Positions 9,401-33,410 of a stretch of 64,000 nt of DNA are shown here, one piece after another. Each line of letters begins with the position of its first letter. The first letter of the stretch is position 1. Both the position numbers and the translations under genes were made by a program. The notes under the pieces were generated by a model, which saw nothing but the letters and a program-made list of their open reading frames with translations, had not been told where the DNA came from and did not search any database. Source of the DNA: a virus. Lineage: Duplodnaviria > Caudoviricetes. The DNA is taken from IMG/VR virus record IMGVR_UViG_3300037067_026422; one strand, 5' to 3'.

Positions 9401-10553
9401 TCTTAAGTATGGAAGTAAGTCAGTGATCTTCCGTGATGCAACAGACATCACCGTCAATAAGCATACCTTAGCATTCCAAACTGTTGTACGATGTCTCGGA
9501 AACAATACCGTAGATGTCTACAACGATGAAGGAACAAAAGTAGGTACGAAGAGAGCATTTACCTTACATGATGAGCAATGGGTGACAAGAACGGATACAC
9601 ACATCCCTAACCCTACACTTATTGATTACGAAAATGGTGACGACAGGGATCATACGAAAGTAATAGCTTACCTGTCTCACATAGACGAGTTCAAAGTTAT
9701 CGCAGGATACTAACGCAAAGCCTACTACAGCTGAGGAGGGATCTTATGGAAAAGATGAAGAACACCAGACCTGTTAAACTGGATACTATGTGTGGATTGA
9801 TCCCGTGCAAGATTATCCAGTTCTTGAGTTATTCTAATTGCACAAACAAATATGGGGTGGATAACATCCCATCAAGTGGTACCAAGATACAGGTAGAAGT
9901 CACCAAGGATTCCTATGGGTTTAAGAAAGGTGAAATCCTTGAGTACTGGTCGACCGATGTTATCCCATCGCATAAAATTGCAAGGAATAAATATTCCTCA
10001 TGTATCAGGGGGTATAGATTAACTGCTTACTTCGTTGATGATAAAATTCCAGAAGCACTAATGACACTAAAGGAGGCTCTATGAAAGTATTTATAATAAA
10101 AAGGGGTTTCATTGCTGGTTCGGGGCATTCCGTTACTGTGGTTAAAGCTATAAATGATACGGAGGCACTAAATAAGTATAAAGAACATCTGCACATGGAC
10201 TGCCTTCCCATTGGTATAGGTGTACAGGAAATAACAGAAGATGTTTGTGAAGTTTATCATTATGACAACCCTTTATACAAAGGATGAGGAGGCTCTATGA
10301 GCTGTCCATATCTTTCTGAATGTATCCGACCCGGCACACCCCAAAGTATCCGGGATTGGATACTCTTTACTGACAGGCACCATCAAGGAGATAAAACACC
10401 CTCTCAGACAATAAAATCTTATAGAGGCACGGAGATTGCCCTATATATAGACTTTAAGAAGGTTAGTCGTCTTCGTAGGGAATCAAGAAAAAGAGAAGAA
10501 CTTCAGAATCAGTCCTTGTCGTTCTATCACTTTCACATAAAAATGGAGAATCT

Positions 10554-10737
10554 ATGAGTAAATATTCGCAAAACTGAAGATGAATTTGATATCGAGGGTA
10601 ACTATGGTCAAAGCTTTGAAGTAGTAACTTGTGAGATTACAAGGCCTGAAGCCAAAGCAACCTTGAAAGACTACCGGAAAAATGAGCCCGGTATCCCTTT
10701 CCGAATCCGTAAGCATCGGGTACCAAAAGTAATATAG
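10554..10737 (+). pseudogene. Frameshifted small phage protein
   Basis: GGAG RBS and ATG 10554 stop after 7 codons. The adjacent frame continues IRKTEDEFDIEGNYGQ...KDYRKNEP to TAG 10737. A 2-nt insertion near 10564 would restore MSKYIRK. Confidence 0.55.
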
Positions 10738-10972
10738 GGAGGCTCTATGACTCAACCCATCAAAAAAGAACTTACCCAGGATGAAAAAAGAAGTATACTT
10801 CGTGTTTTAAAAGAACTTCCGGATAATGATAGCGTTATCCCTGCACTAATGGAAAAATATGGTTGTTCCCGTACAATTATCATGGGAATCCTTATTGAGG
10901 ATACCATAGCGGGTTTTACCCCACAAAGTGAACCTGATTCATCCAATTAATTTCAATAAAGGAAATGACCGC

Positions 10973-11311
10973 ATGAAAAAGATTATCCAGCATCAGATCA
11001 TTGATCATGGTGTCGAAGGTGAACAATACTTCCAGGGCTGTGGTACCTCCTTCACCGAATACTCAACAGTATATACTGGCATCGGTAATAGTGCCCATGA
11101 AGCTCTTGAGGATGCCCTTGAACAAGCAGCATGTTGCGACTGGGATATCGAAGGTATCGAGAATAAACTATCAGAAGATAATGACGTCCCAGAAATAGCG
11201 GAAGATTCGGATGAATCTTCTGACATGCATCATTATGTTTCTATCCGCGTTAAGGGGAATGATATGGATAATTACGTCACTGGCGTCAGTAACGATAAAG
11301 GGGCTCTATGA
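10973..11311 (+). CDS. Acidic hypothetical protein
   Basis: AAGGA RBS; motif YFQGCG...TGIG..A.EALEDALE. Confidence 0.75.
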   Translation: MKKIIQHQIIDHGVEGEQYFQGCGTSFTEYSTVYTGIGNSAHEALEDALEQAACCDWDIEGIENKLSEDNDVPEIAEDSDESSDMHHYVSIRVKGNDMDNYVTGVSNDKGAL

Positions 11312-11844
11312 TAAAGCGTATCAAGTTTACGGGTAAGTTTAAAGACCTTCCCCCTATGGGATACAAATTTCAAAAGCTTTATGCCAGAAACTACCGATGC
11401 TATCATGACTACGAAATAGGTAGCGGCATCGAGCATCCGTTTTGGATATGGCAAAAGGAACGCCGGTTTGAAATAGATGACTGGCACGGGCTGGAAGTTC
11501 CTATCGTAGAATTCTGTCAAACGCATACCCTTATACCCCGAACCGTTCCAATGGGTAAGTACAAACCAATGACCATTGATTACTTTAATCTGCTCTGCAA
11601 CCGTAAGACTTTAGAAGTACGTGAAAAAGTTTTCAAAACGGATGACCCTTCAAGGTTTTTCTTTATGGAAGATCGAGGAGAGATAACCAAGGAGCAAAGT
11701 ACGGCGCTCATTAAAGAACACTATGAAAACTACCGGGAGATATGTGTTAACCCTGTTAAGTTACTCGAACGATTGAACCGGTTCGAAGGTATGTATGAAA
11801 TAGTAGTTGATGAATGGCGTACCAAACATATGGAGGCTCTATGA
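11308..11844 (+). CDS. Hypothetical protein
   Basis: ATGA-coupled at both ends. Confidence 0.8.
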   Translation: MIKRIKFTGKFKDLPPMGYKFQKLYARNYRCYHDYEIGSGIEHPFWIWQKERRFEIDDWHGLEVPIVEFCQTHTLIPRTVPMGKYKPMTIDYFNLLCNRKTLEVREKVFKTDDPSRFFFMEDRGEITKEQSTALIKEHYENYREICVNPVKLLERLNRFEGMYEIVVDEWRTKHMEAL

Positions 11845-12152
11845 TAAAAAGAATCGATGTTAAAGGTGTTGCGGGTAACCCAATCCGTGTTCTTCTTATC
11901 CCGAAAGGGAATAAGTGCCCCTATATCATCAGTGATATACCCTGTCATGTAGACACGGTACAATTTTATGATCTCAAATATACCGAGAACTTCACCCCTG
12001 ATGGTCAGTATATCGGTGCTTACTATTCAAGTACACTGATAGAGAAAACCCCAAATACAGGTCTTGATCTGTATGGCAGTGAACCCTCATGGAAAATCAA
12101 TGCCAGTACTTTCAGTTTGATACAGGATTGGTTACTGTATCATACCACTTAA
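11841..12152 (+). CDS. Conserved phage hypothetical protein (paralog of 14771..15193, without the tag)
   Basis: Shared motif FYDL...TPDGQ.I...W.I...DW; GGAGG RBS. Confidence 0.8.
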   Translation: MIKRIDVKGVAGNPIRVLLIPKGNKCPYIISDIPCHVDTVQFYDLKYTENFTPDGQYIGAYYSSTLIEKTPNTGLDLYGSEPSWKINASTFSLIQDWLLYHTT

Positions 12153-13706
12153 GCAAGGAGACTCTAATGATATACGCCAAAGGTAATGTCGTCAATGGAA
12201 AGATGGTCCTTTCCGATGTTCAACAGATAGATCAATCAACTCTCACCTCTGACTGCTTCCTGATTCAGATTCAGGGAGCCTCTGCATGTACCACCTGCGA
12301 GAACCTTAATAAGCCCCGTATATGCGGGGGTATGAAGCTTCGGGAGAAATATGGGGTCCCAGCCCCTATCGTGAAGAAGCGCTAATATGAAAAAGCGTCG
12401 ATGGAATGAAATCAGTAGCAAAGCAACCGCATATCCATTCAATTATGACGAGAAAGGTCTTGCTGAAGCAACAGCTGTTGCTTCAGAGATAGGGGGTACG
12501 GTAGAGATTTATACTGCAGGATTTCATCATAACTATGTTGTAAAAGCGGCATGGATGTATTTCAACGGATGGCCTAAGGAGGTTCTATGAGTATCCAACA
12601 CTCAGTATTTCTTCGACCGGTGGGTAAAGATAAAGTCCTGCTCCTCACAATCGTAGACAGAGACACACTACCCATAGAGGATGACTGCTTTATCATGGCT
12701 ACCACCACAGCAAGCGTACACACCAACTTCAATCCTTCCATAACCCTTGAGATGACATCCAAGCTTGAATCCAAAGAGTATACCTCTGCAACCAATGAGC
12801 CGGATACCCACGGAGAGAGTATTTCAGGTATCCTCAAAAGGCCCTTATGGTTTATACGTAAATTCAAGTCTTTGATGGAACAAATGTACGGATAACAGGA
12901 GGCTCTATGAATATAAGATTTGTGCTTAGTCACATGAACAAAGACGGTATGCGTCGAATGACCTCTGCCCTGCAGGGTCGTAACACCCATGCTACCAAAG
13001 AAGAAGCTCAGAAATATCTTAAGAACTTTATCACGAATAACAGCGAGGAGAATCTCATAGGAATCTTCGGCAAGCAAAGTATCGGGACTTTTGAAGTATC
13101 CGCTATGGAGTGCTATCCGGAGCATAATGATCCGAAAGGCTGCTTTATACAGCGGGAACTCAATCCCGATCAGACTATCCTGATCGGAAAGATAAAAGAA
13201 ATCATTGAAGGTATACGTGAGAAGGCTCTATGAGAACAAAAGAACCAATGATATGGGATCGGGTATTCGCGGCAGATGATGCCATGGAAATCCCTGCGGG
13301 TACTCCGGTCGAATGGCACGAAAAGAACAAAGCCTACTACGTGAAACCGGAGTTTTTTGCGGATAAAGATGTTCTTCCCCAGGATGCAATATACTTGGGG
13401 TGCAAAGTAGCTTCTAACAATGTTACCTGTGATGGTATAAATTTGTGTGAACATCTTAAGGATGTAACCAAATGCCCTGATGTAACATGCCCTCGTAAAT
13501 GAAGGAGGCTCTATGCCACAACTCAATCCTGATCAGTTAAAAAAGCGGGGAGCAATTCTTGAAGATATGCTTGCAATCTTCAAGAAGCAACATCCGTGGA
13601 TAATAACAAGAGAAGAACTTGTTGCAGAATTTACGGAGTTCATGGAATCCAAACCTGAAAGAATAAGAATCATCAATGCTCTTGCAGCAACAGCATAGGA
13701 GGTTCT

Positions 13707-14153
13707 ATGAAAAAGCCTAAGATAAATAAGATCCTACGAGGTTCTATCAAAAAGCCTGCAGTAAAGAAGAAAACTAAACAAGGTTCTAAGATAGAGCTAT
13801 ACCTCAATCCCCGTCAGATAAGATCCCTGATCAGTCAAGCTGAAAAAGAAGGTGAAGTAATCGTCATCCGATGTCTCAGAAAAACCCCTGCATCCAAGCC
13901 CGGAGGACCTGATCAGGGGCAAGTCTATGATCTTCACTGTACTACTAAGCCAGCAAATTATAAGGCTGCTTCTTCTGCCGGTATGCGTAAGATAGAAGAC
14001 AAAAAGAATGGAGTTTTAACGGTGTTCGTTACCAACCGTCAGGATGAACTTACCAAACAGTGGGGGGCATGGCGACGGGTGAATCTTGAAGCAGTACAGA
14101 AAGTAACGTATAAAGCCATTGACTACGAAGTAAAATCATCTACATCCAAATGA
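13707..14153 (+). CDS. Basic hypothetical protein
   Basis: GGAGG RBS; Lys-rich N-terminus; three palindrome copies within its first ~95 bp. Confidence 0.8.
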   Translation: MKKPKINKILRGSIKKPAVKKKTKQGSKIELYLNPRQIRSLISQAEKEGEVIVIRCLRKTPASKPGGPDQGQVYDLHCTTKPANYKAASSAGMRKIEDKKNGVLTVFVTNRQDELTKQWGAWRRVNLEAVQKVTYKAIDYEVKSSTSK

Positions 14154-14163
14154 GGAGAATGAT

Positions 14164-14754
14164 ATGAGTGAACCTATTGGAATTTGTATCGAGATTGGGG
14201 GGACCCTTCCTGTATCCTTGATAGAGGCCTTTCTTGAAGAAGTCTATACTGACATAGATAATCTTAATGGACCGGATTCAAAGGAAGAAATTATTGAGCT
14301 GTCGAATACAGATTGTATCCGATATGACGGTACAGCCAATTATGGCCTGTGTAATGAACTCACAAAGTTCTGTCAGGAGCATAATCTGCAATGGATACAG
14401 CACTCTGAAGCCAGTGGTGAGTACAATGCTGATACTGCATACTGGAAACCGGGTATGAAAGAACCGGAATCCTTCAGGACCGATGCCGAAAATAATGCTG
14501 TGTTGCGTGCCGATGAAATTCGTCCGCTGGTATATTTGCTTCGTGATCTTATCATCGAGGGGGAAGCAACACTCCCTAAATATATCAATGAAAAGGATGA
14601 AAGGGTCAAAGAATTGGTGGTGGCGGGTCTTAAGGCTAAAAATGGAATAACCCATGCTTCAAGATTCGTCCGGAAGCTTGATATGCTGATCGGGGATCTT
14701 ATTCCAATAGATCCGGAAGACGTCCCAAACATCATAATTGATCTCGGTAAATAA
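14164..14754 (+). CDS. Hypothetical protein with tag-like module (related to 21799..22467)
   Basis: LPKYINEKDERVKELV; N-terminal region resembles the ORF at 21799. Confidence 0.8.
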   Translation: MSEPIGICIEIGGTLPVSLIEAFLEEVYTDIDNLNGPDSKEEIIELSNTDCIRYDGTANYGLCNELTKFCQEHNLQWIQHSEASGEYNADTAYWKPGMKEPESFRTDAENNAVLRADEIRPLVYLLRDLIIEGEATLPKYINEKDERVKELVVAGLKAKNGITHASRFVRKLDMLIGDLIPIDPEDVPNIIIDLGK

Positions 14755-14770
14755 CTTAGGAGGCTCTACC

Positions 14771-15193
14771 ATGCCATTAAGGATGGATATACTTGGTGCT
14801 ACCGGGATCGGTATGCGTGCTATACTCCTGCTCAAGAATGAAAACTGTCCTAATCATAACAACTTTGCCAAGGAGGACTTGATTGAGTTTTATGATCTTC
14901 GGGGGGATCAAACACCTGATGGTCAGTTCATCATAGCAATACCTCTGAAAGCACTTAATGAAGAAAGGCATACCGGAGATACATTAGTCTTAAATGATAG
15001 TACAAAGGAATGGCAGATCAATGATCGAGTCAAAGGTATGGTCATTGATTGGGCTGAATATATCTTATACCAAACCTTAAAAGAAATAGGGTGTCTGCCC
15101 AAGGATGACCTACCCAAGAATGATCCGCCCATGAACGCTCAACAACATGCTATAAGCATGATCAGATACTTTTGTTTGAAGGAGGTTCTATGA
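14771..15193 (+). CDS. Paralog of 11841..12152 with a C-terminal extension
   Basis: Same core plus CLPKDDLPK...MIRYFCLKE. Confidence 0.8.
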   Translation: MPLRMDILGATGIGMRAILLLKNENCPNHNNFAKEDLIEFYDLRGDQTPDGQFIIAIPLKALNEERHTGDTLVLNDSTKEWQINDRVKGMVIDWAEYILYQTLKEIGCLPKDDLPKNDPPMNAQQHAISMIRYFCLKEVL

Positions 15194-15424
15194 AGAAAGT
15201 CTTAATCCAAGTAGTCGGTGGTGTCGCCGAAATTGTAGCCAAGCCAGCAGATGTCGAGGTCGAGATCAAAGATTTCGACAATGAGCCCAACGTTGCTGAC
15301 TTCTCGGCAGAAGATGTGCAGGAAGCCATCGAGTCCTGAGGCTCTAACCAAGATCCTATGATATCACTGAGGAGGGAGGTTCTTCATTAGAACCTCCCTC
15401 CTCCTCAAAAAGGAATACTATACA

Positions 15425-15700
15425 ATGGATACACAACTGATAAGTGACATAGACACTACAACCATCATGGGGAAACCTTATAAGGTGATACTTCATAATG
15501 ATGAATGTCATGAGATGCTGGAAGTCGTAGGACAAATCATCAAAGCTATACACTGTACTTATGAGCATGCTGTCAACATCATGATGGAAGCCCATAGTTC
15601 TGGTACGGCTGTTGTATTCACTGGCGGCAAAGAACGTTGTGAACTTGTTGCTGAAATCCTTGAACAGATCAAACTTACTACTGATATTATTCCGGCATGA
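15425..15700 (+). CDS. clpS: ATP-dependent Clp protease adaptor ClpS-like protein
   Basis: PYKVILHND..H....V...I...A..IM.EAH..G.AVV..G..E.CE matches the ClpS core. Confidence 0.85.
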   Translation: MDTQLISDIDTTTIMGKPYKVILHNDECHEMLEVVGQIIKAIHCTYEHAVNIMMEAHSSGTAVVFTGGKERCELVAEILEQIKLTTDIIPA

Positions 15701-15717
15701 TATATGAGGGAGGTTCT

Positions 15718-16143
15718 ATGGAAAAAGCTTTTAGCTATGGAAGAACAAGACTTACATCACTTGATAAGCTTAAGAAAGATATTACCATCCTCACCAATCA
15801 GATACATATAGTAGAAACGATCCCTTTTGATGTCCCTGTATGTCTTACACTTGAAGTGAGTGTAAAAGGGTTCCTAACTCCTGTAACGAATAGATGTGTA
15901 GCAACCCTCTCAAGTATATACATATTATTATTAGCTAATGAAGAAGAACGTATCGAGTTTAGTTGTCATTACTATGCTCATGAAAAGAAAGATCTCTTTG
16001 CTTTCTCTGATGCAATCTTACTGCCATTAAGACATATCAAAGATTATAAAGTTCTAAATAAGAATGATCTTCCCTTGCTTATGAACTGGGAAGTTAAAAG
16101 CGATACTTTCCACACACTCTACGAATCCAAGGAGGCTCTATGA
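15718..16143 (+). CDS. Hypothetical protein, tag subtype B
   Basis: IKDYKVLNKNDLPLLMNWEVKSDTF. Confidence 0.75.
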   Translation: MEKAFSYGRTRLTSLDKLKKDITILTNQIHIVETIPFDVPVCLTLEVSVKGFLTPVTNRCVATLSSIYILLLANEEERIEFSCHYYAHEKKDLFAFSDAILLPLRHIKDYKVLNKNDLPLLMNWEVKSDTFHTLYESKEAL

Positions 16144-16370
16144 AAGATACTCTTCATGTCGGGGATACTGTTATGTGGCGAGGAGGATTCGGGAATCATG
16201 CTCCTCTTCCTGCCAAAGTCACCCATATTGAGAAGACAGAAACACGTAATCAGAAATCAGGCTCTTCAGTAGATACTCTTCCGTGGGGTGAGGTGCCCTG
16301 TTCAGTGGTCAATCTTGACAATGGACATTGGGCATATGGAGATCAAATAAGTCCGAAGGAGTAAAAGGAT

Positions 16371-17000
16371 ATGGCTAATATCTGTAGCAATTATCTTATC
16401 ATCACTGGAGATCAGGATCAAATTGAGGATCTATATAAGAGACTCATGGATCAAGATCCGGCGCTAATAGAGACTGTCCCTAACTTTGAAGTAAGAAATC
16501 ACTCTGATTATTGCATACTCGATAAAGAATATATCACTCATACTGAAAGGGTTGATATAAGTTTTGACTTTGGCAGTCGATGGAATTGTCCACTTGATGA
16601 GATCCATACCCTCTCTTTAGAGTATCCTGATCTTGAGTTCCGATTGAACTATGAGGAAGGAGGCAATGATTACTTCGGGGAAGCACTCATACAAAATGGC
16701 TCATGTGACTCAAATGATCTTACGGAACGTAATTATCATGAAAGGCATCATATGGGGTATCAAAAAGAACTTGCCATACTAAATGATTGCTCGTATGAAA
16801 AGTTCTTGAGTGAGTATACTCATGGTAACTTCATGGATGAACATCCTTATGCCATGATCGACCGTAATGTGGTAGCACGCATCAAAGATAAGGATCTTGC
16901 CTTGTTCATCTCCCGGCAATGGTTAGATGATGAGGCTAAAGAAGAATACCAACGACGGCTCTCCAGAGGATCTACTGAAGAACCTGAAACTGAGGAGTGA
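16371..17000 (+). CDS. DUF1281/YubB-like ferredoxin-fold protein with C-terminal tag
   Basis: M.N.C.N.L.ITG...F.SRW.CP...YPDLEF.L.YEE.G; ends KDLALFISRQW...RRLSRG. Confidence 0.7.
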   Translation: MANICSNYLIITGDQDQIEDLYKRLMDQDPALIETVPNFEVRNHSDYCILDKEYITHTERVDISFDFGSRWNCPLDEIHTLSLEYPDLEFRLNYEEGGNDYFGEALIQNGSCDSNDLTERNYHERHHMGYQKELAILNDCSYEKFLSEYTHGNFMDEHPYAMIDRNVVARIKDKDLALFISRQWLDDEAKEEYQRRLSRGSTEEPETEE

Positions 17001-17470
17001 ATATGTATGAAGTCCTGACAAATAAACAATACCGCAAGCTCACTGCTGAAGATCAGATAGTTGAATTGAAGAAGTGGTTATCGGATCAACTTGATAATCA
17101 TTGTGCAGTGATGAGATCTGTATCAGGTACTTTGATAGAAGCTGATCCGGAGATAGAAGAAGCTATCGGTGCAGATCTTAATGAGCTTCCTACCATGATC
17201 AATGATTATGAAGAAGGTACAGCAGCAAACTTCATCGTAAAGTATCGTCTTGCTAATGCTATTGAAGACTGTGATGACAGTATCCTTGATACAGATGAGT
17301 TCGGAAAAGTCGTTATGAAACTTCTAAGTAACAGTGAATATGAGAGCGAAGAAGATATCAATATTATACGATCGCATAAATCCTTCTGCTCGGATATGAT
17401 CACGGTATGCCTGATCTTTGGCTATGAGGATCTAAGGAAGAGCTTCATAGCCTGGCACCCAAATCTATAA
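16997..17470 (+). CDS. Hypothetical protein with internal tag module
   Basis: DLNELPTMINDYEEGTAANFIVKYRL. Confidence 0.75.
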   Translation: MNMYEVLTNKQYRKLTAEDQIVELKKWLSDQLDNHCAVMRSVSGTLIEADPEIEEAIGADLNELPTMINDYEEGTAANFIVKYRLANAIEDCDDSILDTDEFGKVVMKLLSNSEYESEEDINIIRSHKSFCSDMITVCLIFGYEDLRKSFIAWHPNL

Positions 17471-17479
17471 GGAGGTTCT

Positions 17480-17848
17480 ATGAAAGTGCCTTCTAATCTT
17501 GCCCTGCTCATCAACAATGATCGCAAAGATATAAATGAAACGATCAAGCTTATCCTTAAAAACCCTGAAGATCATATCAATAACATGATACTGCTTTCGA
17601 AAATCTGCAGCATAAAGATCAAGTTCAAATCTCCGGTAGTGATCATGGCAGCAAAGAGAAAGCCACTTATTAACCTGCTTGAATATATCTTCAACAATCT
17701 GTTCCTTCATGAAGACTATGGGCTTTGTTATGCCTTAAAAGATAACTGCCGAAATGGATATCGAATACCTGGAGAAATAAAATCTTATGAACCTGTGCTT
17801 AATTCGATAGATCCATTTAATATCTATGAATCTGTAAAAATTAATTAG
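17480..17848 (+). CDS. Hypothetical protein; tandem paralog of the N-terminal half of 17863..18609
   Basis: Both begin M(K/Q)VP..L...ETIK.IL..P..H..N.I.LSK.C..KIKF. Confidence 0.8.
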   Translation: MKVPSNLALLINNDRKDINETIKLILKNPEDHINNMILLSKICSIKIKFKSPVVIMAAKRKPLINLLEYIFNNLFLHEDYGLCYALKDNCRNGYRIPGEIKSYEPVLNSIDPFNIYESVKIN

Positions 17849-17862
17849 TGTAAGGAGGCTCT

Positions 17863-18609: not shown

Positions 18610-19061
18610 TCCCTTATACCGACACAGGAGGCTCTTTGAAAGATCCAGCAGTCAAACTCAAAAAGATTCGGGACACTCTGATCAAAGATGCCCGTGATAA
18701 TATCACTACTGTCATTGAAAGATTCTCTATCAATGCAGCTGAACCTGACATCAGAGTCAATTACAAAACACCAAAGAGTAAACTCCCCTTATTCTCCGAA
18801 GGATCTTATGGGGAAACTAATAAGATCCTTGCTACTGCCATGCTTAATGGGGAACCTGATCCTATATTCTCGGAAGCCGTTTATGAGGCTCTATCACAGA
18901 GTGTAGAGGAAACCTTCATAAATGATGACCATAGTAGTATAGAAGTCCTCAACTACTGTCAGGGTAAATTATATATAATCTCTTCCATCCTCAAACAAAT
19001 AGGGGAAAGAAAAGTATCAGATATCTGCTATCAATGGGCAATGCTTGGAGCGGACTAAAAA

Positions 19062-22467: not shown

Positions 22468-22471
22468 CCCT

Positions 22472-24168: not shown

Positions 24169-24313
24169 CAACTAAACAAGCCATGAACTCAATCTTCATG
24201 GCTCTTCTCTTTATCCCTATCCTCGCAGGCTTGATCTTTATCCTGACCCGACACTCATTAATCCTGAAACAAATCTGCTTATTATTCTGGTAGATAAAAT
24301 ATGAGGAGGCTCT

Positions 24314-25054
24314 ATGAAAGAGACTTTGTATAAATTCACAGGCACCGAACATACCAATGAAGGCTGGCAAGCTATCCCACTCGAAGTCGGATGCAGCTAC
24401 TGTATAGGTGACTTTGAAAAATATGAAGGTTCCATCACAGAGGATCTTCGTAAGAACCTCTTTGTCTTGCCTGCTCTCATGCAAGGCTCCGATTACTCAG
24501 GCGGCTCCATACAAAGATCCAATAAACGCAGCTTCCTCAAAAAGTATGAAAAAACAGAAGGAGTCTATGAAGTCTATGGTGGATACAATACCTATGGCGT
24601 AGCTATCCGTCTTGATATCTATGAATCCAAAGAAATCAAAGATGTTTTCGATGCCCTCGAAAACTATCCTCTCATCGATGATGAAGATCATACTCAATTA
24701 AAGGATGAATGGGAAGGTCAGTACATGAAAAATATTCTTATCGATGAACTCTGTAAGGATATAAAACTTGAAGCCTATATCCCTGAGTGGGAATCCCTGC
24801 TTGAAGATAAAGAAGCCATCGAACTGATAGCATGGGATGGGGTAAATGAATTAAACCTGAACTGGTATGAAGAAAATAATTGCAGTACCCTGGACTCTGA
24901 AAGTAATACTATGCTTCAGTCTTATGTCGAAGATCGATTGATCATAACACACTGCAAGAAACTTCCCTTATTCATCAATCGTGACTGGTCGTGCAAACAA
25001 ACTGAAGAAATGTTCCTCAGTAAACTCTCAGAAGGAGCTACTAAAAATGACTAA
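24314..25054 (+). CDS. Hypothetical protein with C-terminal tag
   Basis: LENYPLIDDE motif; ends KKLPLFINRDW...KLSEG. Confidence 0.8.
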   Translation: MKETLYKFTGTEHTNEGWQAIPLEVGCSYCIGDFEKYEGSITEDLRKNLFVLPALMQGSDYSGGSIQRSNKRSFLKKYEKTEGVYEVYGGYNTYGVAIRLDIYESKEIKDVFDALENYPLIDDEDHTQLKDEWEGQYMKNILIDELCKDIKLEAYIPEWESLLEDKEAIELIAWDGVNELNLNWYEENNCSTLDSESNTMLQSYVEDRLIITHCKKLPLFINRDWSCKQTEEMFLSKLSEGATKND

Positions 25055-26144
25055 AGAACAGCTTGCAGAACTCGAACGTATTAACGAACTCAAAGCCCGC
25101 ATCTGGGCCCATGCCGCTAATAAAGTCATCAAAGGAGAATCAGATCCCCTTGAAATAGAAGAAGAAAACATCGAAAGCAACAAAGGAAGAATAGATAAAG
25201 CACTCAGATTGCTTCATGGTTCTGTCGAATACAAAAGAGCTATAAAAAGCCAATACAGAAGGGATCTTAAGATATATGAGATCCTTAATTTCGATGAAAG
25301 TAAAAATCTTACCGAACTACCCGTCTTCGTAAATGATATCAAAGACCTTCATAACAGTGTAACCAGTTACTATGGTGATGAACAAACAGACTTTGATACC
25401 ATCAGCTATCGCTCTCTTACTGATCTTGCAGATAAACAAATCCTTTATATTTACTGGCACCAAAATGAATACAGCTTAATCAAACATGAGAAAGCTGTCT
25501 ATGTTTTCCCGAATGCCCTTCTCGAAGAACGAAACAAATTGATCTTACGAAGTATCATCGAACAGTATCTTCACACCAACTTCCATACATGGCTGGAAAA
25601 TAAACTCTCTATATCAGAAAACTCCCTCAAGTATGATGACCATTTCAATCTGCAGATCCGGAACTTTGCTGCTCATGGATATAGATTCTCCATGTATGCC
25701 CTCTTCGGTCAGAATGGATTCCTGGATGAATACACTCACTTCAAGGATTACTTTGAGACTCTTGTGAAGAACCTCAATGACTTCAATCAAGTCATCCAAA
25801 AAGCAGGGGGATTCGATGTACTCCTTAAATCCTTTCGGGATGAAATCTTCTGTATCCTTCTTAAACAAGCTCCCGTATATGCTTTCAGAGATGCTCCTGA
25901 ACGTAATTATAGTCAAGACAGCATAGAAATCTTGTTTAAACATCCTCATATGTATAAGTTCCTGATCACCCACTCCAACCTCTTCAACTATGACACCCTC
26001 TATGGTACAGATACCTCTATTCTGAAAATTGGTGAGAGCAACAGCTGTCTTAAGGATGGTGCAGATACGTTCATCCCAGACCCCACTGAACTCAAAGTAA
26101 TCGAAGACCACAAAAAAAAGGATGCCCAATATGTACTCAACTGA
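25047..26144 (+). CDS. Hypothetical protein
   Basis: AAGGAG RBS before ATG 25047; contains NLTELPVFVND. Confidence 0.8.
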   Translation: MTKEQLAELERINELKARIWAHAANKVIKGESDPLEIEEENIESNKGRIDKALRLLHGSVEYKRAIKSQYRRDLKIYEILNFDESKNLTELPVFVNDIKDLHNSVTSYYGDEQTDFDTISYRSLTDLADKQILYIYWHQNEYSLIKHEKAVYVFPNALLEERNKLILRSIIEQYLHTNFHTWLENKLSISENSLKYDDHFNLQIRNFAAHGYRFSMYALFGQNGFLDEYTHFKDYFETLVKNLNDFNQVIQKAGGFDVLLKSFRDEIFCILLKQAPVYAFRDAPERNYSQDSIEILFKHPHMYKFLITHSNLFNYDTLYGTDTSILKIGESNSCLKDGADTFIPDPTELKVIEDHKKKDAQYVLN

Positions 26145-26424
26145 GGGTCTGAAAAGCTTATCAGACTACCTGAAAACCACCGCTAAAGAGGCTCTTAAAG
26201 GAGAGCCTCCTGATCAAGAAGGCCATGATCAACTCATGGAAGTAGCCCGACAACTCGAAGCTATCCGCTACAATCCCCTCCTCTTCAAAACTATCCTGAA
26301 AAAATATCAGATAGACTATGGAACCATCTTGGAGAAACCCCTTAAACAAGTCCCCCTTCATATCAACGACGCTGGTATCTTATCAAAAACCATCGTCCAA
26401 TGGAGATGTACCAATAAAATCTGA
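26122..26424 (+). CDS. Small tag-family protein
   Basis: Ends PLKQVPLHINDAGILSKTIVQWRCTNKI. Confidence 0.75.
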   Translation: MPNMYSTEGLKSLSDYLKTTAKEALKGEPPDQEGHDQLMEVARQLEAIRYNPLLFKTILKKYQIDYGTILEKPLKQVPLHINDAGILSKTIVQWRCTNKI

Positions 26425-26467
26425 TATCATGATATCATCCTGAACAAAAAATATATAAGGAGGTTCT

Positions 26468-26701
26468 ATGCTAAATGCTGATGATCGAAAAGCTTTAGCT
26501 ATCCTCCTTCAACAATCTGGGTGGGCGGGCACTGCCAATGATGTCTACTGGTATAAGTCCCTATCCCGAAGTATCAAGCTCAAAGATCCTGGTCTATATA
26601 ATGTCATGAAACGATCTAAAAAACAACTCCCCCTTCTCATCAACCATCCTCATGGCTATGTCCGGGTCATAGCAAAATATCGTATGGAACATAACATATA
26701 A
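26468..26701 (+). CDS. Small tag-family protein
   Basis: Ends QLPLLINHPHGYVRVIAKYRMEHNI. Confidence 0.8.
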   Translation: MLNADDRKALAILLQQSGWAGTANDVYWYKSLSRSIKLKDPGLYNVMKRSKKQLPLLINHPHGYVRVIAKYRMEHNI

Positions 26702-26710
26702 GGAGACTCT

Positions 26711-26953
26711 ATGTTACAGCCCCAAGATCTCCTGACCATCACAGAACAGTTAAAGGGGATATGCTCAGAGGAAATGTGCTTTGATATTAGGGGTTTGAGA
26801 ATAACTTTTAAATCCTCATTATATCTAAGAAAGATGTACCCCGGATGGTATCACGCCCTCACCTGTGATATAAAAATTCTTCCCAAGCTACTTAATCATC
26901 CCACTGCTACTATTCGGGTCATAGCAAAATATCGCTTATCAGTCAATAGATAA
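26711..26953 (+). CDS. Small tag-family protein
   Basis: Ends ILPKLLNHPTATIRVIAKYRLSVNR. Confidence 0.8.
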   Translation: MLQPQDLLTITEQLKGICSEEMCFDIRGLRITFKSSLYLRKMYPGWYHALTCDIKILPKLLNHPTATIRVIAKYRLSVNR

Positions 26954-26971
26954 TCTTATACAGGAGGCTTT

Positions 26972-27715
26972 ATGAAAGATCCTATCGTAGTCCGGGTCGG
27001 AGTCAATAATAATTTCAACTGCACCGATGCCGAGTTCCAGCAACTCGATATCCTCAGTAACCTTCATCCTGATCATATCTTCTTCGTCAACTCAAATATA
27101 AAAACCCCTAACCTCACAGCTATCAATGACCATCCCTACAAAGCAGTCCTCACCCTCAATCCTGATCTAACCGTCATGGATAACCTGGTAAACAGGCTTT
27201 ATGATATAGACTCCAAAAAGATAGCCTTCGTCAGGATCAAATATATCCCTGAATGGCCTTCCATCATCGATCTGATCAAAAGAGTCTCGAAGACTCATAA
27301 GGTGGTCATCACTAACCAAAGATTCAATAGCAAGAAAACTATTGCTCAGTTCATCCCTGACTACAAAAAATATTATGAGTTCTCTTGTTCAAGATATCGG
27401 TTGAAAGATTTAAGTATCCTGTCTGATATCGTAGACCATAAAAAAGTCTTCATCTGTGATGAGAAAGGTCTTGGATGCGAAACCTGCGGTCTGTGTTCCA
27501 AACTCACCACAGGAAAAGAACTCCCGATCTATACCCTTAATCTGTCTACATCCGGGTACTGCCCCTATAACTGTTGCGATTGTTACGCAAAAGCCATGCA
27601 GAATAAGCTCATAAAATGGCACCTGCCACCTATCCATTTCGATTGGATACACCGGAATCATAAACAATCCGGTCGTACCAGACATATCAAACTAAACAAA
27701 CAAGCTCTTCTATAA
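26972..27715 (+). CDS. Fe-S/radical-SAM-like protein, possibly a circularly permuted phage gp88-like protein
   Basis: CxxxCxxC-YA (CPYNCCDCYAK) near the C-terminus, preceded by CETCGLC. Confidence 0.55.
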   Translation: MKDPIVVRVGVNNNFNCTDAEFQQLDILSNLHPDHIFFVNSNIKTPNLTAINDHPYKAVLTLNPDLTVMDNLVNRLYDIDSKKIAFVRIKYIPEWPSIIDLIKRVSKTHKVVITNQRFNSKKTIAQFIPDYKKYYEFSCSRYRLKDLSILSDIVDHKKVFICDEKGLGCETCGLCSKLTTGKELPIYTLNLSTSGYCPYNCCDCYAKAMQNKLIKWHLPPIHFDWIHRNHKQSGRTRHIKLNKQALL

Positions 27716-27724
27716 GGAGACAGT

Positions 27725-28177
27725 ATGGTAAAGACTATACCAATCACCCTATCTGTCACGGTCTACAATGAATATGCTGATGAAATCCCAGACAGCCTTA
27801 CCGTAAACATCACCGAAAAGTTATACCAGAGGATACTCAAGATATCAAAGATCCTAAAAAGAAATGATCTGGATTCTACTTCAGAGTATAACTATGAACC
27901 AGAGTTCTTTATGGAGAGTGGGGATACCGAAGAAGTTACCCCCTATGAAGGAGGTCGGGAATGTGAAATGCTCGTGATCACTGATACTTCGTTCTATTGG
28001 AAAGGTGTCCTCAAACACACTGATATCCAATATGAATCTGAACTCTTCTCCATCAAGGGTCTGAAAGAACTTATGAAGTTATATGATCGCCCTCTATCCG
28101 ATATGGCTAAACTTATTAATGATGAAGATGAATGTACCGCAGCCATAGCAAAACTTAGACTGGAGGCAGGTGAATAA
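27725..28177 (+). CDS. Tag-family protein
   Basis: Ends PLSDMAKLINDEDECTAAIAKLRLEAGE. Confidence 0.8.
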   Translation: MVKTIPITLSVTVYNEYADEIPDSLTVNITEKLYQRILKISKILKRNDLDSTSEYNYEPEFFMESGDTEEVTPYEGGRECEMLVITDTSFYWKGVLKHTDIQYESELFSIKGLKELMKLYDRPLSDMAKLINDEDECTAAIAKLRLEAGE

Positions 28178-28183
28178 CACTTT

Positions 28184-28211
28184 TGCAACATAGAAAATTT
28201 AATCTGCATGG
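28184..28211 (+). promoter_or_regulatory. Bipartite motif TGCAACATAG-N11-TGCATGG
   Basis: Same motif and spacing; upstream of the HTH gene at 28351. Confidence 0.6.
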
Positions 28212-28350
28212 ATAGCTTAAGAAACCCTGATAGACTGAGAGGTGTATCATGATCAACCAGTAACAAGATAATGTCATATGTAGTCCCTGTATATATCACA
28301 TATCATAAAAAATCTCAGATAATAAAACATTTCACTTAAGGAGTCCCCCT

Positions 28351-28617
28351 ATGAACACCAAGACAACCAAAAAGCCTGCAGCAAAGAAAAGCACCGTCCG
28401 CACCGCTCGTAACAAAGCAGAAACCCGGAGTAAACCTGTCAAAGAAAAGACACCGTTCAACTACCGGACTATCAAAATCTATGGAAGAAATTTCCGGACA
28501 GCTTCCAAAGCCGCAGTCTATATGCTCCGTAAAACCAAACTGTCCCAATCTGAAATCGCCCGTCGCTGCGGTGTCTCTCAGCCCTGTGTCTGTCAGCTTG
28601 CTGCTATCCTGAAGTAG
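28351..28617 (+). CDS. Small basic HTH DNA-binding protein
   Basis: Lys/Arg-rich N-terminus; C-terminal LSQSEIARRCGVSQPCVCQL helix-turn-helix; own terminator at ~28638-28665. Confidence 0.8.
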   Translation: MNTKTTKKPAAKKSTVRTARNKAETRSKPVKEKTPFNYRTIKIYGRNFRTASKAAVYMLRKTKLSQSEIARRCGVSQPCVCQLAAILK

Positions 28618-28667
28618 TCCCAATAAAGAAGTATATAGAAGGGAGATGATCATCTCCCTTCTTTCTT

Positions 28668-29030
28668 ATGTACTCCTACGGAGATCCTATGTCAAAAAGA
28701 TTTGAAAGAAATAAGCTAAATCTTATTGAATCCACCCAAAGAACTATTCAGATACTTCCTTTGCTTTCAGAAAATAAAGTATATATGATCACAGAAGATG
28801 AGTATAAATATGTAGGTAAAGTACTATCCTTAACCAGTGACGGTATCAGAATACACATACTGGCTATGTACTGTAACTTCAATAAAGGTGCTGATTATTG
28901 GGTAAATAAAAGAAGAGCTATCAAGTTTAAATATATCACTACCTGCTCCCTATGGACTCCTAAAGATGCCCCCCTCACCTGTAACTACAACATGACCGAG
29001 GAGTACCGAAAGATAGCCTATAGAACCTAA
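28668..29030 (+). CDS. Hypothetical protein, tag subtype B
   Basis: Ends WTPKDAPLTCNYNMTEEYRK. Confidence 0.7.
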   Translation: MYSYGDPMSKRFERNKLNLIESTQRTIQILPLLSENKVYMITEDEYKYVGKVLSLTSDGIRIHILAMYCNFNKGADYWVNKRRAIKFKYITTCSLWTPKDAPLTCNYNMTEEYRKIAYRT

Positions 29031-29081
29031 GTGTAGTAGGCTTTGATCTTATACGGTATATCTATTAGAAAAAGAGGCTCT

Positions 29082-29360
29082 ATGGAAAATCCTGAATATG
29101 TCGAAAACAAATTCACCAAACAGGACTATCACAGGCTCTATGAAACATCCTCAAGTTCCTTACTCCAATCCCATATCAGAAGAGCAAACTATCGTGATAA
29201 AAGATTCCAGAGGATGATCCCCTCTGAATCCATAAGAAAAATATTCTACTGCAATTTTAATGATATCCCCCTATATATGTTCGGAAAAAACTATCTACCT
29301 CCTGATACTCAAGAAATGATAACAGATATCGCCCGATGGCGATTAACGATACATAAGTAA
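29082..29360 (+). CDS. Tag-family protein
   Basis: Ends FNDIPLYM...ITDIARWRLTIHK. Confidence 0.75.
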   Translation: MENPEYVENKFTKQDYHRLYETSSSSLLQSHIRRANYRDKRFQRMIPSESIRKIFYCNFNDIPLYMFGKNYLPPDTQEMITDIARWRLTIHK

Positions 29361-29398
29361 CTTAATCTTATCCCCTATAAGTAAGGAGAAACTTTATT

Positions 29399-30247
29399 AT
29401 GTCTCTACTCAATAATTACCTGAGTGCCGAAAAATCCCTCGCTGAAATCCATACCACAGAAACAGCCTCCAATGAAGCCCTTCAAAAAACTATCCGGAAC
29501 ATCAAAAATGATTACTATGACCAGATCAGAACACTCGAACAGGAACGTGACCGTAAGATCGATGACGAACAGGAAGCCTATGATACCAACATCACCAGAC
29601 TGAAATCAGAAGTACCAATCCTTAATGCCACCATCAAAGAAGTCAAAAACATCTTCTCCATGATGACTATCGCTATCGATGGCTTTACGGTAGAAGCTCC
29701 AAAACTCTACGAATATTCAAATCGTGATGCCAGCGGTAACTACATCAACCCCTCCCGTAAAGTTTACTTCAATCCTATCCAGTCTATCAGAGAAGATGAC
29801 TACTCCAATATCCAGCTGTATATCGTACCCAATAAAAAACCCACCAATAAATATTCACTGATCCTCGCCGGGAACTTCCCCCTGTTTCGGTGTGAACCTG
29901 GAAGAAACTTCAGATTTTATGGATATGGTACTCCAGCACATGATGAAGGCTGTGATATCAAGCTGATCCTCAAAGAGGCTCCATCAGAAGAAACCTTAAC
30001 GGAATATGTCACCAAGAATCTCAAAAAGATCCTGGAGAAAGTCCCCAACAAGGAACTTGATGAATATATCCAAACTTATGAAACTGCAAGGGTATATCTT
30101 CAGAATGATACCTGGAAAATAGCTTACTATGAAGATCAGAAGTATTACTATGAGAACCACTACTCTCATGGTACTGATACTCCAGAATATAAAAACATCC
30201 TGAAGACCCTGAAAAACTTACAACAGAAGAGTAAAAAGCATGACTAA
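29399..30247 (+). CDS. Hypothetical protein with N-terminal coiled coil
   Basis: 282 aa; AAGGAG RBS. Confidence 0.8.
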   Translation: MSLLNNYLSAEKSLAEIHTTETASNEALQKTIRNIKNDYYDQIRTLEQERDRKIDDEQEAYDTNITRLKSEVPILNATIKEVKNIFSMMTIAIDGFTVEAPKLYEYSNRDASGNYINPSRKVYFNPIQSIREDDYSNIQLYIVPNKKPTNKYSLILAGNFPLFRCEPGRNFRFYGYGTPAHDEGCDIKLILKEAPSEETLTEYVTKNLKKILEKVPNKELDEYIQTYETARVYLQNDTWKIAYYEDQKYYYENHYSHGTDTPEYKNILKTLKNLQQKSKKHD

Positions 30248-31869
30248 CAAATCCAAACTGATCAAAGATGTCCTCGTTAAGCTTGCCTCAAATGACCAGC
30301 TCCCTGCTGACATGAACACCCTTGATGAACATATCTTCGATGATGTGATCAAGATGGATATCAAATATCTTGAGCACCATGCCGAACAACATGCCCTCGG
30401 TCAGTATCTGTCAGAGTACCCGGAAGACATGGAGTATGAAGATATCATCGAAAGACTCGTAACCAATAACCTGGTAAATGAGGAAAGCCACATAGTAATC
30501 TGGGAACCCTTTGAGGAGGGTGACCCCGCAAGAGTCGCAGTACATATCGAAAATGCAAAAAGTGCAACCCTTACTCTACTCAAAGAAGTATTTGAAGGAT
30601 GGATGAATAATAGTAAGGCTCTGTTATAGAGCCTTACTGCCCAGCAAGTAGGTTCTATGATAAAAACTTGTCAACTTAAAAATGGAGGCTCTATGATACA
30701 TACTTGCCCAAAATGCAAAGCCGATCTTACCATCAAATATAGCGTCACCCGTACCTACAACAATAAGGATACTGAAGAAGGGAACGTCAAAGCCAAAGGT
30801 CACTATGATAAAAATGGATACTTTGAACCCGACCATAAAGTAGATCTATCAGAAGGAAGATATGATCTGGTAGATGGGGCTGATACCTGTACCCAATGTG
30901 ATACTATCATCCAATAAGGAATAAAACAGTATGTCCTCTTTAATAGAACAAGCAGCCCGCAAACTATCAGCATCCGCATCTATGGGGATGTATACGGAAG
31001 AACAAGTCCTCAATATCCTGAAATCCGTACAGGAATGTGATGCAGACCCTAATGGTAAAAAAGCCAGCATTCGTGCAGCAGCCAAACAACAATACGGTGA
31101 ACAAGGCTCCATCGAAATCGATTCCGATGCCGTCGTATCCATATCAGAAGATGGTGGTGCCTATGTCCAAGCGTGGGTATGGGTACAATAACTTAAACAG
31201 AAAGCTCCTATGAAACACATACCAGCCTGTAACGGATGCCCCAATGATGGTAGATGTCAGCACCAAGACCTAAACAACTGTCAGGCTTGTAACGAAAACC
31301 TCAAGTAATAAACCTTAATCAAAGGCTCTATCTTAAATACTCACATTGAATACTGTACCACATATATAACTTAAAAAAGGAATAAATTCTATGGACTCTA
31401 TCCTCGGAAAATCCTTAACTCATTCAAAAAACCTACCCCTTACTGTAGGTACACTCCTTGATACCCTTAATACTCTGATCAAAGAAAAACCAAATGCCCT
31501 CAAAAATCCTGTATTCATGTCCTCTGATGAAGAAGGTAATCAAGCCCTTCATCTCTATGCAATAGATATAACCAAATCCGGTCAACTCACCTTATGGCCT
31601 GCCGGTGGACATGACATAGAGTTCCCCACATAATAACCTAAGAAGGAAATTTATCATGAAACAAATAATCATATCAGAAAAAGAACTCCATAGTAACGGT
31701 GGTCTGGAAATAGTCATCCCCGGTACTGCCGGTAGCCCTGAAGATCCCCCTGGATCCCCTTGTCCAGTATTCATTGAATCTTATAAGCAGGAAGTTAGAG
31801 TCATTATCTGGAATGGAACTGAAGTTCCTACAATCATCCCCCTCAAACGTGCCAAAACTCCCGAATAAT

Positions 31870-33410
31870 AAAACAGGAGGCTTTATAATAAAGCCTCCTA
31901 TGCTCTTCACCCATAAAAATTAATACCTACCCCCTAACAAAATAAGGCTCTACCTTATATCCTGATACATAGAACCTGATAGGTACCCCTACCTGGATAT
32001 CCTCATACTGATATCCCATTTATTCACACTTTACATCTATTCCCTGAATAAAACGGGGTACCCAGGTTCTATCTTATATCCTCCCCCATACTGATATCCC
32101 CTTATTATAGGGGGTACCCCTCCTTATTTTACATAGTTATATCTTATAGTACCCCTAATCTTCTATGGGGTATCCCTGTACTTATATATAGTATCTATGA
32201 AAATTGATACTGTATCACGCACCCGTTACCCCCTCTTCTATCCCAACCAAGGAGAGATATTTGAGTATCACCAAGATCACTTTTGATAAATTACCCAACG
32301 AAACACCAGCCCACTTCAAGGGTAGAGTCAAGAGATCCATTGCAAACATACGCAAACACAACCATAAAACCACAATATTAGGCATCTCTAACCTACAAGT
32401 AACTATCCAGGCTCCTATGATAGCAATTTCATATGTCATACCCAAGATTATATAGGAACAAAGCCTACTACAGCTTTCCCCCATCCTTTTTCTGATAGAA
32501 GGAGAAGGAATCCAGGCTCTATCTTATATCCTTCTCCATTAATACCCAAGCTTCTCATGGAATGATCATGACATGGGAATCGAGCTTCTTCATTAGAACC
32601 TCATTTCCATAGGTATGCTGCTGCTATTGCTCTTGGGTAAGCATAGCATACACACGTCAAGCTTCTATATTAGAACCTTATATCCAAGATACACACCAAT
32701 CTATCATGAAAAGGATCATCTCATGAGTCAATGGGTATATCATACACACCTTATATTGACAAATACTATATTCATTTTATTGACATTGTATTATTCTTGT
32801 CTTGACATTCGATTTCATAAGTCATTGTCTTATAGTGTTATATGAAGACCTTGACGTCGGGACTCGGCGGGTCAGATGCTTGAGGAAGCGCAGACAACCC
32901 AACCACCTCCCCCATCCAATCAGCATTCTGATTCAATTATTCATCAATTACTCATCGATTACTCCTCAATTTCATCCCTCTCCTACCAAGACAATTTCCC
33001 CCTAATCTCCCATAAACATCAAGTCTAATCTACCTACAATTCTTCTCATCTTCTCTACTACTCATTCTAATATTTCAATCAATATCTACGGGGGTTTCAT
33101 TAATTTCTCTTTTCATTTCTCTTTCATTTTCCTTTATTCTCTTTCATTAACATACAGTATTAGTATTTAATCAAAGTCTATCTTATCTTTCTCTCTACCT
33201 CTTAATTTCCTGTCATGTACCGTACCTTCTATAATCTTTTCTAATTACTCTCTAATATTAGCATAATCTTTCTAAGATAAAGATAACCTTACTTGTATAT
33301 TCCTTTATTTCCTATAAATTTGAAGATTCTCTTATACCTATCTGTTTTTTACCTGTTCCTTATCAGTATAGGCTGGTTAAACTGACTAAACTGATTAGAG
33401 GGTCATTGTA
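31870..33410. other. Largely non-coding region with strand-skew switch (candidate replication origin or terminus region)
   Basis: Few credible ORFs; six palindrome copies; G-poor up to ~33360, then abruptly G-rich, while genes stay on the + strand. Confidence 0.55.

Follow-up and report, generated by a model that had tools for sequence, protein, structure and literature searches.

The stretch of DNA analysed here (the window: 64,000 nucleotides of the IMG/VR record IMGVR_UViG_3300037067_026422) comes from an uncultured phage of about 239 kb (238,919 bp), and one block of small genes within it carries many copies of a 19-bp palindrome, AGGNTCT-N5-AGANCCT. All genes called in the window are on the + strand. 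When the window is scored for this motif, with limits of 0, ≤1 and ≤2 mismatches, there are 5 exact matches (0.02 expected) and 28 matches with ≤1 mismatch (0.23 expected, with 0 of 100 shuffles coming near), and all of the latter lie within 13700-32678. The limit of ≤2 mismatches brings the total to 48, of which 43 belong to the block and the other 5 (3269, 5999, 33948, 41111 and 44237) lie outside it, which agrees with a preliminary description of this DNA, where the motif had been reported as nearly absent before 10 kb and after 33 kb. Every coordinate listed there has been recovered, with two adjustments. The copies at 15377 and 30616, described as perfect, are exact, whereas those at 31878 and 21749 are perfect palindromes of a variant that is changed on both arms, rather than matches to the consensus. 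The block, given as 10074-32678, holds complete copies only from 13700 to 32678. At the gene starts of 10074-13513 only the left arm is present (GGAGGCTCTATG), and the right arm, having 3-6 mismatches (2 at 11308), is random, so that the full palindromes begin at 13700.

The 5-bp spacer, also proposed earlier, is indeed fixed. Among the 29 left arms of the block that are away from start codons, a right arm (≤1 mismatch) is found at spacer 5 in 15 cases and at any other spacer from 0 to 15 in 0-1 cases. At the start sites, the right arm is far nearer to the consensus than are codons 2-4 of other genes (Mann-Whitney p = 8e-7), and the intragenic copies occupy all three reading frames, being translated, according to the frame, as E-A-L-x-K-S-L, R-L-L-H-R-A or P-G-S-M-K-E-P. 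This disposes of the concern that the right arm might only reflect the ribosome-binding site (RBS) and N-terminal codon background. The consensus of the element is (G)AGGCTCTA-NNN-WAGAGCCT(C), in which the symmetry reaches positions 8 and 12 (A/T), leaving a 3-base centre. Between the centres of the two 8-bp half-sites there are 11 bp, or one turn of the DNA helix, and this would correspond to the classic geometry of a helix-turn-helix (HTH) dimer. The motif is thus a genuine signal in the nucleic acid, dyad-symmetric and of constant spacer, limited to one block and under selection.

Since AGG is part of the motif and an ATG is tolerated in its spacer, the motif can overlie an RBS together with a start codon, which explains the GGAGGCTCTATG starts. 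Several of these starts overlap the upstream stop codon as ATGA, in agreement with the earlier suggestion that the left arm lies behind the EAL*/EVL* ends of the upstream genes. Start-overlapping copies account for 13 of the 48 sites in the window and for 49 of the 225 sites counted in eight genomes, and about 70% of the window copies are not at starts. The coverage of the block is uneven, since an operon encoding an AAA ATPase and a VWA protein (19184-21712) and the unit of an HTH gene (28177-28689) have no sites.

Conservation of the motif in related phages

Relatives were found via homologues of the DUF2201/VWA protein (20465-21712), which gave eight loci from other metagenomes with 52-70% identity. 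All eight huge-phage loci carry the motif, usually as a cleaner palindrome, with 9-27 sites (≤1 mismatch) per ~20 kb; the motif-bearing relatives include those labelled L029, L030, L032, L034, L183, L184 and L185. In a 40.8-kb composite of one relative, 30 of the 31 sites are at 12.1-31.6 kb, and the block ends, as in the window, at a GC-skew flip and a non-coding region. A 467-kb IMG/VR record (47% identity, 98% complete) has a weaker motif, with 50 sites (≤2 mismatches) against 24 for a control pattern; 16 of the 50 are in 106-139 kb (7% of the genome), around the same operon. In L184, where the half-site variant is AGNNTCTAACTAAGAACCT, the border copies lie over the upstream stop codon, directly before the RBS and not over the start, which ties the motif to gene borders and not to the start codon as such. 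Searches of phage and plasmid collections found no nucleotide-level relative of the window, scans of IMG/VR with a 17-mer and with a palindrome of 14 specified bases gave single chance matches only, and a single-protein scan for relatives gave no match.

The intragenic copies are also conserved. Orthologues are available for 14 intragenic window sites; 7 of these occupy an identical alignment column in 2 or more orthologues, and 5 of the 7 do so in all, within families of 32-53% identity. The strongest example is a family of proteins sharing 32-41% identity, where both sites persist in 5 of 5 members. Inside the motif, synonymous codons agree in 80% of cases, as compared with 50% outside it, when the columns are picked from the window only and scored on pairs that do not include the window. 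The motif is therefore conserved deeply and selected at silent positions inside genes.

Units without sites and a candidate binding protein

The AAA-VWA operon is served by a conserved sigma-70-type promoter (TTGAYW-17-TATATT) and a terminator of its own, and it has 0 sites in 6 of 8 genomes (the window and five relatives), where 2.8-9.0 are expected. The unit of the HTH gene, which also has a promoter of its own, likewise has 0 sites. As these two units are embedded in the block and are nevertheless skipped, the signal tracks expression units, and this favours a regulatory role over a purely chromosomal one.

The HTH gene of the second unit encodes an 88-residue protein whose N-terminal tail is basic and whose C-terminal part is a three-helix HTH. 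Its matches to HTH families are below the Pfam cut-offs, and the PHROG 'HTH DNA binding protein' family is matched with E = 1.6e-5. A sequence search of the PDB gave no match. In the structure model, a disordered basic tail is followed by a β-hairpin and three helices (predicted local distance difference test score, pLDDT, ~90). The helix GVSQPCVCQLA of the C-terminal HTH is identical in 4 of the 5 aligned proteins. The protein had already been named as a candidate binder, and this proposal is strengthened by its distribution: it is encoded in the motif block of the window and of every relative whose fetched stretch has a homologue (L029, L030, L032 and L185), including the 467-kb phage, where a likely orthologue of 66 residues is inside the block. 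By this co-occurrence, the 88-residue protein is the best candidate for the binder.

A second repeat, CTGCAACATAGA...(T)TCTGCATGGWATGAAT, is observed at 639-1038 (region 639-1061) as 4.6 tandem units of 87 bp. Single copies of it (1301, 19063 and 28185) are upstream of gene 1392, of the sigma-70 promoter of the AAA operon and of the HTH gene, and it is absent from the fetched relatives. This repeat may be a regulator site or a promoter element of the palindrome-free units.

Other features of the block

The coordinates of the sites and of the units among them are collected in Table 1.

Table 1. Motif copies and associated features of the block (window coordinates; intragenic, inside a gene; orthologue counts refer to conservation of the site).
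Position	Strand	Feature	Details
10074-13524	+	Nine gene starts with left arm only (GGAGGYTCT-ATG)	ATG at 10081, 10297, 10747, 11308, 11841, 12587, 12907, 13230, 13513; left arm ≤1 mismatch
13700-13799	+	Three copies: 13700, 13739, 13781	13700 at start of gene 13707; 13739 and 13781 in-frame, intragenic; spacing 39 and 42 bases
15339-15357	+	Exact copy	First base is last base of stop codon of gene 15190-15339
15377-15395	+	Exact copy atop 15-bp perfect stem (15369-15403)	No T-run after it; 48 bases before start 15425
15711-15729	+	Start-overlapping copy	ATG 15718
16133-16151	+	Start-overlapping copy	ATG 16140
16259-16277	+	Intragenic copy	Frame 0
16426-16444	+	Intragenic copy	Frame 2; kept in 2/4 orthologues
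16967-16985	+	Exact intragenic copy	36 bases before next start (upstream class)
17125-17143	+	Intragenic copy	2 mismatches
17427-17445	+	Intragenic copy	53 bases before next start; kept in 2/5 orthologues, third has 3 mismatches
17473-17491	+	Start-overlapping copy	ATG 17480
17856-17874	+	Start-overlapping copy	ATG 17863
18629-18647	+	Start-overlapping copy	TTG 18636
18800-18904	+	Two intragenic copies: 18800, 18886	2 mismatches each
19184-21712	+	AAA_5 ATPase and DUF2201/VWA operon	Own sigma-70-type promoter 19126-19154; 0 sites vs 6.6 expected
21742-21787	+	Intrinsic terminator	14-bp stem and T-run; stem top is both-arm motif variant 21749-21767
21879-21897	+	Intragenic copy	
22373-22391	+	Intragenic copy	Kept in 2/2 orthologues
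22732-22750	+	Intragenic copy	Kept in 5/5 orthologues (32-41% amino acid identity)
23061-23079	+	Intragenic copy	2 mismatches; not kept in orthologues
23171-23189	+	Intragenic copy	Frame 1; kept in 5/5 orthologues
23647-23665	+	Start-overlapping copy	ATG 23654
23850-23868	+	Start-overlapping copy	ATG 23857
24307-24325	+	Start-overlapping copy	ATG 24314
24441-24459	+	Exact intragenic copy	Kept in 4/4 orthologues, synonymous positions fixed
25756-25774	+	Intragenic copy	Kept in 2/2 orthologues
26461-26479	+	Start-overlapping copy	ATG 26468
26965-26983	+	Start-overlapping copy	ATG 26972
28351-28617	+	Gene of candidate binder, 88-residue HTH protein	Own upstream region; terminator 28637-28662; unit site-free
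29075-29151	+	Start-overlapping copy 29075 and intragenic copy 29133	ATG 29082
30015-30033	+	Intragenic copy	
30616-30704	+	Three copies: 30616, 30650, 30686	30616 exact, 10-bp stem, holds stop codon of gene 30240-30629; 30650 intergenic; 30686 start, ATG 30693; spacing 34 and 36 bases
31323-31341	+	Intergenic copy	68 bases before start 31391
31878-32678	+	Six copies in non-coding block end	31878, perfect variant palindrome; 31945, 32064, 32514, right half CTTATATCCT; 32583, 32660, AGCTTCT...AGAACCT
32679-33412	.	Non-coding boundary	Motif stops; GC skew flips from negative to positive; same layout ends block in relative

The non-coding boundary also contains three TTGACAT repeats (32757, 32782 and 32803) and a GC-rich island (~32850-32900), and a similar layout is seen at 31600-32060 of the L032 composite. 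This block end may represent a replication origin or mark a change of transcription class. A conserved 13-mer, CAAAGCCTACTAC(G/A), occurs at 9716, 13328, 23399, 32459, 41985 and 55715, mostly just past stop codons or ahead of the first gene of an array, and three of these copies (9716, 23399 and 32459) bracket the block of palindromes. It is also found in L029, L030, the L032 composite and L036, and the relatives sharing it include the 467-kb phage.

Among the small proteins of the block, only the 148-residue protein of 13707-14153 is represented by a homologue in each of the seven relatives. The N-terminus of the window version has a tandem peptide repeat (GSMKKP.. / GSIKKP..), which yields three motif copies; the relatives do not have these copies. 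The genes at 15425-15700, 16371-17000 and 23857-24168 encode a ClpS-like adaptor (PHROG match, with the ClpS Pfam family in the orthologues), a protein with a Pfam DUF1281_C domain (Api92-like) and a DUF5983 protein. These early-block proteins may act on host factors.

DNA operators or RNA hairpins

As the motif is under selection even inside genes, it is most likely a docking site for a phage regulator. The explanation that we favour, at a probability of roughly 0.45, is that the copies are double-stranded DNA operators for a phage-encoded dimeric HTH regulator of the small-gene arrays, with the 28351 protein as the candidate. The 19-bp element would then be a sequence-specific binding site with two-fold symmetry, and the dimeric HTH protein (best candidate, 28351-28617) would bind these sites in the duplex. 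The regulon would consist of the long arrays of small early genes at 13.7-32.7 kb, with the AAA-VWA operon and the HTH gene left out. The bound protein would block or modulate the elongating host RNA polymerase, such that the early arrays are shut off or timed in a stoperator-like manner. An action on the elongating polymerase is suggested by the location of the sites, which are inside transcription units and not on promoters. We infer that the target is DNA and not RNA, that the 28351 protein is the binder and that the effect is repressive. In the preliminary description, the sites were assigned to a dimeric DNA-binding protein that silences or organises the whole block. The dyad, the fixed spacer, the restriction to the block, the selection and the independent variation of the arms speak for the binding protein, but its reach over the whole block has to be given up, as two self-contained transcription units are site-free.

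The principal rival explanation, which is possible but the less probable of the two, is that the motif acts at the RNA level, as a hairpin of fixed sequence in the early messages that is read by a phage RNA-binding protein or endoribonuclease. Polycistronic transcripts would be punctuated by processing, 3'-end protection and partial termination, and translation would be damped or switched off where the RBS and AUG are covered, comparable systems being T4 RegB and RegA, the MS2 coat-protein operator and the T7 RNase III sites.

The properties of the site classes, counted on the 225 sites of the eight genomes, bear on this choice. In the start-overlapping class (n=49), the ATG is at motif positions 8-10 and the AGG of the left arm is the Shine-Dalgarno (SD) sequence, followed by a 4-base spacer; 2% of these sites are perfect palindromes and the hairpins are of about -5 kcal/mol. 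The intragenic class (n=122), inside genes, has 10% perfect palindromes and hairpins of likewise about -5 kcal/mol. The intergenic class (n=43), usually located 5-10 bases past a stop codon, has 44% perfect palindromes.

Several observations weigh against the operator reading, and a number of them are in line with a role in RNA. The intergenic copies are far better hairpins than the intragenic ones, not only in the share of perfect palindromes but also in stability (mean -10.8 vs -5.6 kcal/mol) and in the mean number of extra flanking pairs (1.8 vs ~0.6), which are not conserved; the 15-bp stem at 15369-15403 belongs here. The terminator after the VWA gene has the motif at the apex of its stem in seven genomes; changes in the outer stem occur on both sides together, and the stem leads into a T-run. 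The window copy of this terminator is the both-arm variant and the six relatives keep the motif, with a G-U pair in the arm in two of the seven genomes. T-runs are present there and at several copies in the relatives; most intergenic copies have none. Moreover, the sites favour the 5' borders of genes: some cover the start codon, and in others position 1 is 20-60 bases upstream of it (43 non-start sites, 15.6 expected), just ahead of the RBS. A roadblock on DNA does not need this preference, which would suit the control of each message. The left arm is about 2.2 times better kept than the right (55 vs 122 deviations; marginal in the intergenic sites alone), and this points to a directional, maybe strand-specific, role. 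The intergenic sites show a weak compensation between the arms (p = 0.02).

Further points against the operator reading concern promoters and the proposed binder. No site overlaps a recognisable sigma-70 promoter, and there are no promoter hexamers next to the sites, so that classical promoter occlusion does not apply. The fold search with the 88-residue model gives only generic HTH regulators (E > 0.1). A second HTH protein is encoded outside the block at 44189-44644; it has 151 residues and repeated HTH matches (residues 13-43, 63-101 and 112-147), the best family being P22_Cro, with Fis-type HTH_8 also matched. Such a repeated HTH architecture is unusual.

Other properties of the sites speak against RNA as the target. 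Within genomes the arms vary independently, and the intragenic sites show no compensation, with 225 pairings observed against 222.9 on shuffling the right arms (p = 0.35). Positions 4 and 16 pair in only 14 of 35 window sites, and with such a split in the middle the stem would not hold as RNA. A bias for G-U over C-A mismatches, which would be an RNA signature, is not seen, as C-A mismatches are the commoner at positions 4 and 6. The start-overlapping and intragenic hairpins are weak, in the window -3.9 to -4.6 kcal/mol. With the mean at starts in the window being -3.9 kcal/mol, the earlier idea of hairpins that occlude the RBS finds no support, and hiding of the RBS is not constant either, as the L184 border copies lie upstream of it. 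Rfam 15 gives no match at E <= 1 in 9000-35000, and no RNA-binding protein or RNase has been identified in the window.

A composite of both readings is improbable, more so than either by itself. According to it, the dyad would be read twice by one conserved factor, as duplex DNA in the early units and as a hairpin at stop/start borders and terminators. A large huge-phage clade would have in it a punctuation-and-shutoff code for its accessory early genes, doubling as a cassette joint.

Recombination and possible domain organisation

The repetition of the motif at gene borders makes it a joint where cassettes are gained and lost. Recombination had been put forward earlier as an alternative, and the comparison of related phages for breakpoints of gene gain and loss, proposed at the same time, supports it as a real side effect: 6-7 of the 13 homology breakpoints between the close pair L029 and L034 are on the motif. 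That the junction GGAGGCTCT-ATGA would be due mainly to recombination between copies, as a gene-cassette connector resembling the PeSL cassettes (see below) that needs no dedicated binder, is nevertheless quite unlikely. Single small genes would be moved, added or deleted with both reading frames and the translational coupling kept. Besides the breakpoints, this would account for the L034 gene 7029-7428, which is flanked by direct repeats of cggAGGCTCTATG, for the heavily shuffled gene order of the block among relatives and for the nine left-arm-only starts with their ATGA overlaps. However, recombination at borders cannot explain why, in proteins sharing 32-41% identity, intragenic copies are kept by column with frozen silent positions; it would have no need of a right arm or a fixed spacer, and no promoter is attached, unlike in PeSL. 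In a recent indel between L030 and L031 the repeat involved was a different one, of 33 bp, and thus any repeated start region can be a joint. This indel, at L030 12290-12660, removes or adds 284 bp with a single gene between the otherwise near-identical contigs and is bounded by direct repeats of the RBS region (..cacttttcaaaggagttactatga..), a clean case of cassette loss or gain by short repeats.

It is equally unlikely that the sites primarily organise a domain, in which case a dimeric protein would fold, mark or segregate the region by the replication origin, like parS/ParB, matS/MatP or KorB/OB, with secondary effects on expression. The restriction of the sites to a single ~20-kb domain that ends at the GC-skew flip and the non-coding region, in the window and in a relative, fits with this, as do the individual conservation of many intragenic sites and the independent variation of the half-sites. 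Against it, the sites are on one side of the skew flip only, and the skipping of two embedded units together with the preference for gene starts links them with units of expression rather than with a place on the chromosome. In the block no ParB-type protein was found, the sole match being a sub-threshold ParB-HTH of the small HTH protein.

The remaining candidates can be dismissed briefly. A promoter for a phage polymerase, as the main explanation, does not fit with the lack of a conserved flank beyond the 19 bp, the palindromic structure and the intragenic location of most copies. A mimic of a CRISPR repeat or Cas12a repeat was rejected, as the likeness of the stem extends over 4-5 bases only and there is no Rfam match, and a box for a global regulator of the host was rejected because the motif persists across phages of 40-55% GC; we know of no matching consensus. 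A conjugative element, considered after an FtsK-like match, was dropped given the 239-kb phage context.

Comparison with known repeat systems

The stoperators of Cluster A mycobacteriophages (the sites of the L5 gp71 repressor) are asymmetric 13-mers, orientation-dependent and distributed genome-wide in temperate phages, and their binder is known. The element described here resembles them in that many copies of one protein-binding site would be located within transcription units, not on promoters, and often at gene borders. It differs in being a 19-bp dyad with symmetric arms of 7-8 bp, limited to ~20 kb in the window, the 40.8-kb composite and the 467-kb record. In the KorB-OB and parS plasmid operators, one dimeric regulator acts at palindromic sites that number at least a dozen and include intragenic ones and ones remote from promoters; here no ParB-family protein is found and the sites track the borders of expression units.

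The closest kind is formed by the dyad repeats of Cluster O mycobacteriophages, together with the start-associated sequences (SAS) and extended start-associated sequences (ESAS) of Cluster K. The Cluster O repeat is a 17-bp dyad, TGTTCGG-N3-CCGAACA, with >30 copies per genome in intergenic positions or close to gene 5' ends (Cresawn et al. 2015, PMC4351075). Both elements are short inverted repeats with 7-bp arms and a fixed short spacer, conserved throughout their group. The sequences are unrelated, and the Cluster O copies are spread through the genomes and nearly invariant, whereas those described here are in one block of huge phages of other hosts, many are degenerate or deep inside genes, and they overlap RBS and ATG. 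With tens of copies of a fixed-spacer inverted repeat at intergenic sites or gene 5' ends, conserved in a group, the element is of the same kind as the Cluster O repeats, not of the same sequence family.

The SAS is a non-palindromic 13-mer with an SD core, 3-7 bp before the start codon and almost always start-associated, and the ESAS are 17-bp imperfect inverted repeats with a variable spacer of 4-13 bp, just upstream of the SAS (Pope et al. 2011, PMC3203893). Like the SAS, the present element has an SD core a few bases before the ATG, is confined to the genome's non-structural portion and frequently goes with a gene family; like the ESAS, it has two repeats of which the left one is the nearer to the consensus. 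It is, however, palindromic, only the minority of sites counted above are at starts, its spacer has a constant length of 5, and no separate SAS accompanies it.

The promoter early stem-loop (PeSL) cassettes of T4-type phages consist of a strong sigma-70 promoter and a terminator stem-loop (Arbiol et al. 2010, PMC2839356; Comeau et al. 2014, PMC4122927). As with the present element, their short conserved motifs separate small, non-essential early genes of hyperplastic regions, and genes are gained and lost by recombination between the copies. The corresponding indels are indeed found here, in the L029/L034 breakpoints and the gene flanked by direct motif repeats. Unlike in PeSL, the motif has no attached promoter and many conserved copies are intragenic; only a few of its copies are terminators. 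As defining features of the stoperator, SAS and PeSL families are lacking, the element is not a member of any of them; the earlier comparison with stoperators or SAS does not extend to membership, since those are asymmetric 13-mers. A full-text literature search for the motif strings gave no phage paper among the matches listed. The repeat is of a kind that is already known in phages and is unexplained there.

Significance

Dispersed repeats in the early regions of phages (SAS, Cluster O and stoperator-like) have been catalogued for more than 10 years, mostly without a mechanism. The present case is unusually well constrained, with a 19-mer that is kept at ~50% identity of the marker protein and at silent positions, the skipping of expression units and a co-conserved HTH protein. 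It also offers a specific case in which a regulatory repeat is at once a hotspot of cassette exchange, and it yields a testable pair, consisting of a protein and its candidate 19-bp site, for how huge phages may time or silence their small accessory early genes.

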